Shown here piece by piece: positions 4,561 through 4,960 of a DNA stretch of 5,161 nucleotides. Numbering within the stretch: position 1 is the stretch's first letter; each line of letters opens with the position of its first letter. The notes under the pieces are model-generated. The model was not told where the DNA came from, searched no databases, and worked only from the letters and a program-made list of their open reading frames with translations. Position numbers and translations under genes: made by a program. This stretch comes from a virus (lineage: Duplodnaviria; Heunggongvirae; Uroviricota; Caudoviricetes), in IMG/VR virus record IMGVR_UViG_2526164688_000026. One strand, 5' to 3'.

Positions 4561-4587
4561 TGCACAATAGTGCACAAATTTGCACGA
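4561..4587. repeat. Three helically phased direct repeats TGCAC(A/G)A at 10-bp spacing
   Basis: TGCACAA 4561-4567, TGCACAA 4571-4577, TGCACGA 4581-4587, followed by a T7 tract (4588-4594) and T5 (4602-4606). A fourth copy, TGCACAA, is at 4653-4659. Two copies contain the palindrome GTGCAC. Confidence 0.5.
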
Positions 4588-4657
4588 TTTTTTTGAACGA
4601 CTTTTTGCCTTTCCGGCCCGCGTGGCGGCTGGATCCGTCAGGGATCCGTGCGTGCAC

Positions 4658-4682
4658 AAAAAAACGCGCTTTTTCTGCGCGC
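4658..4682 (-). terminator. Candidate rho-independent terminator for leftward (minus-strand) transcription
   Basis: Minus-strand RNA reads GCGCGC-AGAAAAA-GCGCG-UUUUUUU: a 5-6 bp GC stem with 7-nt loop followed by U7. On the + strand the stem is not followed by a U-run. Confidence 0.45.
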
Positions 4683-4960
4683 AGGTGACGGGGGAACAGC
4701 CCGCGTTTCAGGGGGTAAATAGCATTCCCTGAACGATGTCGCAGAGACACAACAGAATGGCCATATTTCTCACGCTGAGCATGAAAAAGGCGTGAGGGCT
4801 TTTGATTTGATGGGGTGAAAGGTAAAGCCGTCAAAATCGCACTGAGGCAGCGAGAACATACAGTCAACGCGGTGGGATTGCGTAAGAGTCTGACCGTCGA
4901 TGGTGGCGATAAACTGGAAGGCGTCGTGAAATTATCTGACTGATACAGGAGCTGGAGAGT

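Follow-up and report, generated by a model that had tools for sequence, protein, structure and literature searches.

A phased TGCAC box array as the probable right-end arm and cut site of cos in a P88-like prophage of the P2 family

The array of short TGCAC(A/G)A boxes near the right end of the window, i.e. the whole stretch of 5161 bases analyzed here, very probably represents the right-end arm and the cut site of the cos of a P88-like prophage of the P2 family, as judged by comparison with sites whose cohesive ends are experimentally known. A cos is a known and expected kind of element; the version in the window is a previously uncharacterized, lineage-specific one with TGCAC boxes and a GGTGA-type end. 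The window itself derives from a P88-like prophage (Xuanwuvirus, Peduoviridae), and a P88-like element with the same gene order is carried by 1457 of 5426 complete E. coli genomes. The array would accordingly mark where the genome ends and carry the signal for its packaging, in a prophage type that is very common in E. coli, and its main interest lies in the conserved upstream boxes and the specificity code that they appear to spell.

The gene order of the window, namely the replication endonuclease gpA, the ParM/StbB cargo, an ORF of 135 aa, the array, the convergent portal gene and then the terminase, reproduces the gpA-hotspot-cos-gpQ order of P2. In P2, 186 and P4 the cos occupies the interval that corresponds to the array locus (in the P2 genome annotation, from gene A/cargo to gene Q), and the array of the window likewise lies between gene A with its cargo and the convergent gene Q of a P2-like genome. 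The end-of-genome position that the preliminary description had entertained for this region is thus well supported. Fourteen phage records cover 80% or more of the query, and in 10 of them BLAST homology begins exactly at position 4561, implying that the conserved backbone has its edge at the array; for most related phages the homology ends on the 3' side of the cargo ORF 4120-4527. This would fix the right boundary of the cargo/defence hotspot precisely at 4561. The gpA-gpQ interval is a known hotspot of variable cargo reported to hold anti-phage systems (PMC9122126), and the 135-aa ORF sits within it. The features of the region are given below, with negative numbers counted from the predicted nick.

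to 2587: replication endonuclease gpA (gene A), which ends here
2746-3705: ParM (PF06406/PF21523)
3710-4021: StbB-like partition protein (PF10784)
4120-4527, plus strand: ORF of 135 aa with no Pfam family; the last cargo gene left of cos, and not part of cos
4531-4553: hairpin AAACGCCCT / AGAGCGTTT, conservation 0-30%; in the variable part, outside the conserved cos block
4561-4567, plus strand: box R1, TGCACAA, at -123; left edge of the conserved cos block
4571-4577, plus strand: box R2, TGCACAA, at -113
4581-4587, plus strand: box R3, TGCACGA, at -103
4588-4594, plus strand: T7 tract adjoining R3, followed by GAA (to 4597); 80-99% conserved in the lineage
4598-4652, plus strand: GC-rich spacer, conserved in length and variable in sequence, with a semi-conserved CCTTTCC-GCCC inside it
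4602-4606: T5 tract, in the spacer
4631-4638 and 4642-4649: two copies of GGATCCGT, 11 bp apart, in the spacer
4653-4659, plus strand: box R4, TGCACAA (TGCAC plus A7 run, 4653-4664), at -31
4658-4664, 4665-4669, 4670-4674 and 4677-4682: A7, CGCGC, T5 and GCGCGC, respectively
4664-4682, minus strand: hairpin GCGCGC-AGAAAAA-GCGCGT plus T run, terminator-like by pattern scan
4677-4683, plus strand: GCGCGCA, conserved flank left of the predicted nick
4684-4702, plus strand: predicted 19-nt cohesive end (cosN) GGTGACGGGGGAACAGCCC, from homology and distance from R4
4703-4713, plus strand: right flank of cosN, partially conserved (CG 4704-4705, GGG 4711-4713)
5012-5161, minus strand: 3' end of the portal gene (P2 gpQ homologue), stop at 5012; convergent with the cargo

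The hairpin at 4531-4553 is likely to be the terminator of the cargo ORF 4120-4527, and the T7-GAA segment after R3 is likely to form an intrinsic bend or a part of a protein site.

All the elements listed in the preliminary description, i.e. three 10-bp-spaced boxes, the T7 and T5 tracts, the repeated octamer, the fourth box and the A7-CGCGC-T5-GCGCGC element, were recovered at their reported coordinates. The TGCACRA motif occurs four times in the 5161 bases when both strands are searched, and all four copies are on the plus strand within one 99-nt stretch. The count by itself is unremarkable (4 against an expected 2.5); the clustering is the distinctive property. Among 5000 dinucleotide-preserving shuffles, none placed four copies on one strand within 100 nt, none spaced three copies exactly 10 nt apart, and 5 had three or more copies within 100 nt. 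This confirms the array as a real, non-chance pattern. The starts of the T7 and T5 tracts are 14 nt apart and hence mutually out of helical phase, and it is T7 that is highly conserved. The ORFs that run over the array (4560-4688 and 4580-4732 on the plus strand, 4487-4867 on the minus strand) were considered as genes and rejected, as relatives show 1-nt and 6-nt indels and the conserved positions form blocks without a codon pattern. No match was recovered when the whole window was scanned against Rfam and for tRNAs, pointing away from a structured RNA.

The cohesive ends of P2, 186, P4 and phiRSA1 are experimentally known and their records start at the cut; these four sites served as the comparison set for the placement of the boxes:

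P2, TGCAT boxes: R1 -123, R2 -111, R3 -101, R4 -29
186, TGCAT boxes: R1 -124, R2 -111, R3 -101, R4 -29
P4, TGCAT boxes: R1 -124, R2 -111, R3 -101, R4 -29
phiRSA1, TGCAT boxes: R1 -129, R2 -110, R3 -100, R4 -29
window, TGCAC boxes, counted from the start of GGTGACGGGGGAACAGCCC: R1 -123, R2 -113, R3 -103, R4 -31

The layout of the array matches these four mapped P2-family cos sites, so the comparison with P2 and 186 packaging sites suggested in the preliminary description bears out its packaging-site reading, which is further supported by the cos position and the 19-nt end homologue. All four mapped sites have (G)TGCAT boxes, with R4 followed by TAAAACC and with TGCATTAAAACC at -29, inside the published core cos; their R3-R4 spacers are unrelated in sequence and often contain a GC-rich inverted repeat, and a short GC hairpin left of the nick is followed by a G-rich 19-nt end and then by (C/T)GCGCGC. 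The window agrees with P2, 186 and P4 in genomic position, in the four-box layout, in the R4 box with its A run, in the R3-R4 distance (72 bp in all four genomes), in the GC-rich hairpin left of the nick, and in the G-rich cohesive-end homologue with a GCGCGC flank. It thus possesses both a TGCA(T/C) box with an A run about 30 nt left of the nick, together with a GCGCGC flank, and three phased TGCA(T/C) boxes 100-125 nt left of the nick, the latter being a criterion defined in the present analysis and not taken from the literature. There are, however, several lineage-specific departures. The boxes of the window are TGCAC(A/G)A in place of (G)TGCAT, its R1-R3 are exactly 10 bp apart in place of 12-13 and then 10 bp, its GCGCGC lies left of the end rather than right of it, and it has a conserved T7 after R3 and two GGATCCGT copies in the spacer. 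Its cohesive-end homologue differs at 6 of 19 positions and is a predicted end, unlike the mapped 19-nt 5' ends of P2, 186 and P4. The cos of phiRSA1 (from Ralstonia) resembles the window in an end that starts with GGTGA, in TGCAT at -110, -100 and -29 and in CGCGCGC after the end, but has TGCAT rather than TGCAC, an R1 further out (-129), a different spacer and a host from another phylum branch.

P2-type phages package circular monomers. In outline the array is also comparable to the cosQ-cosN-cosB arrangement of lambda, where short small-terminase sites (three gpNu1 R sites) are repeated near a staggered nick, with DNA bending between them; the lambda R sites require an IHF site and flank cosN on the side from which packaging starts. 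In contrast, the array of the window is on the right-end side of the mature genome and shows no sequence or protein homology to the lambda system. The IHF consensus WATCARNNNNTTR, with at most one mismatch, has no match in 4561-4700, so that this region lacks this feature of a lambda-type cosB, and the suggestion in the preliminary description of IHF binding near cos is not borne out. The core cos of P2, 186 and P4 is given as a highly conserved 55-bp segment (Ziermann and Calendar 1990, as cited in PMC5694545, PMC9594776 and PMC9122126). R4, the hairpin, the cohesive end and the GCGCGC flank fit a core of this size, and R1-R3 fall outside it, for which reason they may be dispensable or just stimulatory. 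Neither the TGCAT/TGCAC boxes nor sites bound by the small terminase subunit of P2-like phages were found described in the literature searched, which comprised sources other than the original 1990 cos study.

For a view of conservation across the lineage, loci were collected from IMG/VR by the cut-site 16-mer alone, so that the repeats were not selected on. This recovered at least 120 loci. About 107 of the 120 listed are genuine cos loci of the P2-like kind, and in almost all of them a portal homologue follows 250-350 bp downstream; 10 of the 120 are chance matches with neither boxes nor a portal gene, and provide an internal control. In the 69 listed loci that remain in a non-redundant set (<93% identity), TGCA[CT] is present at the R1 position (-123/-122) in 44, at R2 (-113/-112) in 49, at R3 (-103/-102) in 56 and at R4 (-31/-30) in 63. 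Conservation relative to the window in these 69 loci is below 30% left of 4561, in the cargo, and rises to 80-99% over 4561-4597 (R1-R3, T7 and GAA). The spacer (4598-4650) is variable, R4 with its A run (4653-4666) is about 95% conserved, the hairpin columns (4667-4676) are variable and among the least conserved of the block, and conservation is again high over the flank and cohesive end (4677-4702), where 16 of the columns are fixed by the search pattern. The repeats are therefore retained in homologous loci, the opposite of the lack of conservation that the preliminary description had named as a ground for abandoning its reading. This retention has its exceptions. R1-R3 are degenerate or missing in a part of the loci, e.g. 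the Klebsiella Reipivirus-like ones, and the GGATCCGT pair is specific to P88-like phages, with GGTCTGA...GGATCGG or a similar sequence at that place in other genera. In one natural variant, the IMG/VR locus L091, R3 and the entire spacer are deleted, so that R2 directly adjoins the A run of R4; the portal encoded downstream is 30% identical to that of P88, and the cos of this locus may be shortened or defective. Another locus (L050, 8700-11841) has the boxes and a GGTGA-type end followed by genes that resemble scaffold and capsid genes, the intervening portal and large-terminase genes being absent, and could be a deleted prophage or a satellite-like element.

The variable hairpin columns are of relevance to an alternative interpretation of the right part of the block, according to which the A7-CGCGC-T5-GCGCGC element is mainly a minus-strand rho-independent terminator against late (portal/terminase) transcription that crosses cos into the cargo, and has no part in packaging. 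This appears somewhat unlikely, even as several observations are in its favor: the pattern scan of the minus strand calls a stem at 4682-4664 followed by a T run, and a hairpin with a T run is found at the same place in 74 of 95 P2-type and 17 of 68 window-type loci among those listed, as against 2-3% of shuffles. However, the folding energy of the hairpin is unexceptional (z = -0.55, no better than shuffles), its stem columns at 4667-4676 are poorly conserved outside P88-like phages, with most non-P88 relatives dropping the stem and keeping the A run as a part of R4, and a strong hairpin is already present after the portal stop. Moreover, such a role would account for 25 nt and not for the array, and may coexist with packaging; a terminator role of 4664-4682 is possible and compatible with the cos reading. 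As a separate observation, the hairpin that follows the portal stop, at 4961-4985, is a perfect one of 11 bp (GGGGCATAAAT/ATTTATGCCCC) with z = -3.9 against shuffles and without a T tail, and it is possibly the terminator of the portal/terminase operon.

The position of the cut can be predicted by homology. The top strand would be nicked at 4683|4684 and the bottom strand at 4702|4703, yielding a 19-nt overhang. The predicted end GGTGACGGGGGAACAGCCC is a homologue of the P2 end GGCGAGGCGGGGAAAGCAC, identical to it at 13 of 19 positions, a moderate match that is supported by its position, as the distance from R4 to cosN agrees with that in the four mapped sites (-31 versus -29). The mapped cohesive end of phiRSA1 begins with GGTGAGGCGGGG, and its full form is GGTGAGGCGGGGTCC(C)AAC (PMC5694545). 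The Klebsiella phage 3LV2017 has GGCGAGGCGGGGGAGCAAG at the place of cosN, behind TGCAC boxes, and this end and that of phiRSA1 represent intermediate forms between the ends of the window and P2. One relative has a 6-nt deletion at the right end of the cohesive-end homologue. The collections searched held no physically mapped DNA ends for the phage of the window or for any P88-like phage, and 0 of 44 phage records with a window-type cos start at the predicted nick. An inverted repeat, TTCAGGG / CCCTGAA, at 4707-4733 with a 13-nt spacer lies right of the predicted end and is partly conserved.

One record, LR595891 (P88_4B11), begins at the equivalent of position 4606 and ends at that of 4605, 78 nt left of the predicted nick, and raises the alternative that the site is indeed a cos but is cut in the spacer near 4605|4606 (TTTTT|GCCTTTCC...). 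The same sequencing project yielded three P2-like records that start exactly at the P2 nick and two more that have ends inside the 19-nt overhang, one of which carries adapter remnants at both ends; a start chosen at random in a 37-kb genome would fall within this region of 140 bp about 0.4% of the time, and the reverse complement of 4606-4629 weakly resembles the P2 end (GGAAAG). Against this, the authors of LR595891 picked nt 1 relative to reference genomes, and hence its start is not a determination of an end. Further, position 4606 has no counterpart in P2, 186, P4 and phiRSA1, all of which are nicked 29 nt to the right of R4, and 4684-4702 is a clear homologue of the mapped ends and far more conserved than 4606-4625. 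A cut in the spacer is thus improbable. In LR595869.1 (phage P2_2H4) adapter remnants are seen at both ends (…AGATGTGTATAAGAGACAG at the start and CTGTCTCTTA at the end), and these adjoin the two halves of the 19-nt cohesive end.

The predicted cos can be further examined through its relationship with P2-type ends and satellites. A second IMG/VR scan with the P2-type end GGCGAGGCGGGGAAAGCA recovered at least 120 loci, 95 of them non-redundant among those listed. The latter have TGCAT at -124/-121, -111, -101 and -29, with the R4 box present in 90 of 95 and with TGCAC at an R1-R3 position just once, whereas TGCAC dominates in the listed GGTGACGGGGG loci. Thus the box type, TGCAC or TGCAT, tracks the type of cohesive end. 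Given that it does so even though both kinds live in E. coli, and that P88 and P2 share just 37% identity in their small terminase subunits, a reader encoded by the phage is favored over one supplied by the host. Any covariation of terminase clade with box type would mostly reflect common descent, because the terminase genes lie within 5 kb of the cos and are linked to it.

P4-like satellites rely on the terminase of their helper and share with it the cos alone. Such satellites, recognized by psu upstream, account for 20 of the 120 listed P2-type loci, and all 20 keep all four boxes, including four in which Psu is just 48-55% identical to that of P4. Since they share only the cos and need the helper terminase, the fact that they keep the entire array argues more strongly than any other indirect observation for the boxes being part of the packaging signal. 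In the satellites the conserved sequence extends 6-7 nt to the right of the cohesive end, up to their own cargo hotspot; this right boundary, taken with the left cargo boundary of the phages, points to a functional block of about 150 bp from -124 to +26, i.e. approximately 4561-4710. No P4-like satellite with a GGTGA/TGCAC-type cos was seen among the approximately 107 real loci listed from the first scan.

Retention of this kind also bears on the regulator operators proposed in the preliminary description, in which a regulator of the late genes or of the cargo next to the array would use the boxes as operators or promoter elements. As repeats, the boxes are indeed short, phased and on one face of the helix, and the P2 old promoter overlaps TGCAT boxes by its annotated transcript starts, but the promoter scan detected no promoter-like site in 4561-4700, the array is retained regardless of the neighboring cargo gene or its orientation, and its distance from cosN stays constant from genus to genus and also in satellites. 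The known regulator sites of P2, 186 and P4 are the Cox boxes, the C operator, the Ogr site TGT-N12-ACA and the alpha iterons of P4, and to our knowledge none of them matches TGCAT/TGCAC. An operator function for the array is therefore very improbable. Least credible of all is that it is an iteron-type origin, as the preliminary description had also proposed, or the centromere (parC) of the ParM/StbB cargo: it does have direct repeats beside A/T tracts and a ParM/StbB pair 0.5-1.8 kb upstream, but it has the features of neither an iteron-type origin nor a ParMRC parC, with boxes of 7-10 nt as against iterons of 17-22 nt, no DnaA box found in the window, an initiator that is a rolling-circle replication endonuclease of the P2 gpA type (the P2-type origin being a nick inside gene A), occurrence of the array in relatives without ParM/StbB, e.g. 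phiT5282H, where gene A directly precedes it, as well as in P4 satellites, which have their own origin, and a separate 42-nt repeat pair directly upstream of parM, where parC is expected. These two direct repeats (2603-2644 and 2676-2717), each with a 20-nt palindrome ACGGGAnTnnnGAATCCCGT, are probably the centromere/operator (parC) of the ParM/StbB-like pair of the integrated prophage.

The interpretation of the array as the arm and cut site of cos suggests a potential mechanism. During lytic growth the terminase, comprising the small subunit gpM (PF05944) and the large subunit gpP, would recognize the four short boxes; that this complex is the binder is, like the contribution of R1-R3, whether essential or merely stimulatory, inferred. 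R1-R3 (TGCAC[A/G]A at -123, -113 and -103) might be contacted on one face of the helix, and R4, as TGCAC plus A run, at -31. The fixed 72-bp spacer with its T7 and A7 flanks could then let the DNA bend or wrap so as to place the complex over cosN, where gpP would introduce staggered nicks at about 4683|4684 (top) and 4702|4703 (bottom) to give 19-nt 5' ends of sequence GGTGACGGGGGAACAGCCC, after which the cut DNA would enter the prohead. A further role of the CGCGC/GCGCG hairpin, located between R4 and cosN, may be to block leftward transcription across cos.

A broader and more tentative proposal, which we regard as plausible but short of probable, is that R1-R4 constitute the recognition code of the small terminase subunit in the P2 family, i.e. 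an equivalent of cosB, and that the TGCAT/TGCAC alternative together with the end type splits the Peduoviridae into packaging-specificity groups. If this is true, such groups would decide which satellites and cosmids each helper mobilizes. The difference between TGCAC and TGCAT predicts packaging incompatibility with P2/P4 systems. Further, the conservation of the upstream boxes suggests that the '55-bp cos' used in P2/P4 engineering may omit an efficiency element. The block of about 150 bp at 4561-4710 is a candidate minimal cos for cosmids or transducing particles with P88-like helpers.

Elsewhere in the window, comparison with a 97.8% identical E. coli prophage (NZ_CP173472) revealed single-base indels at homopolymer runs, at 31, ~228 and 2556 and also at 4853. 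Three of these break the frame of gene A, for which the intact replication endonuclease is 940 aa long; either the gene A of the window is a pseudogene or these indels are sequencing errors.
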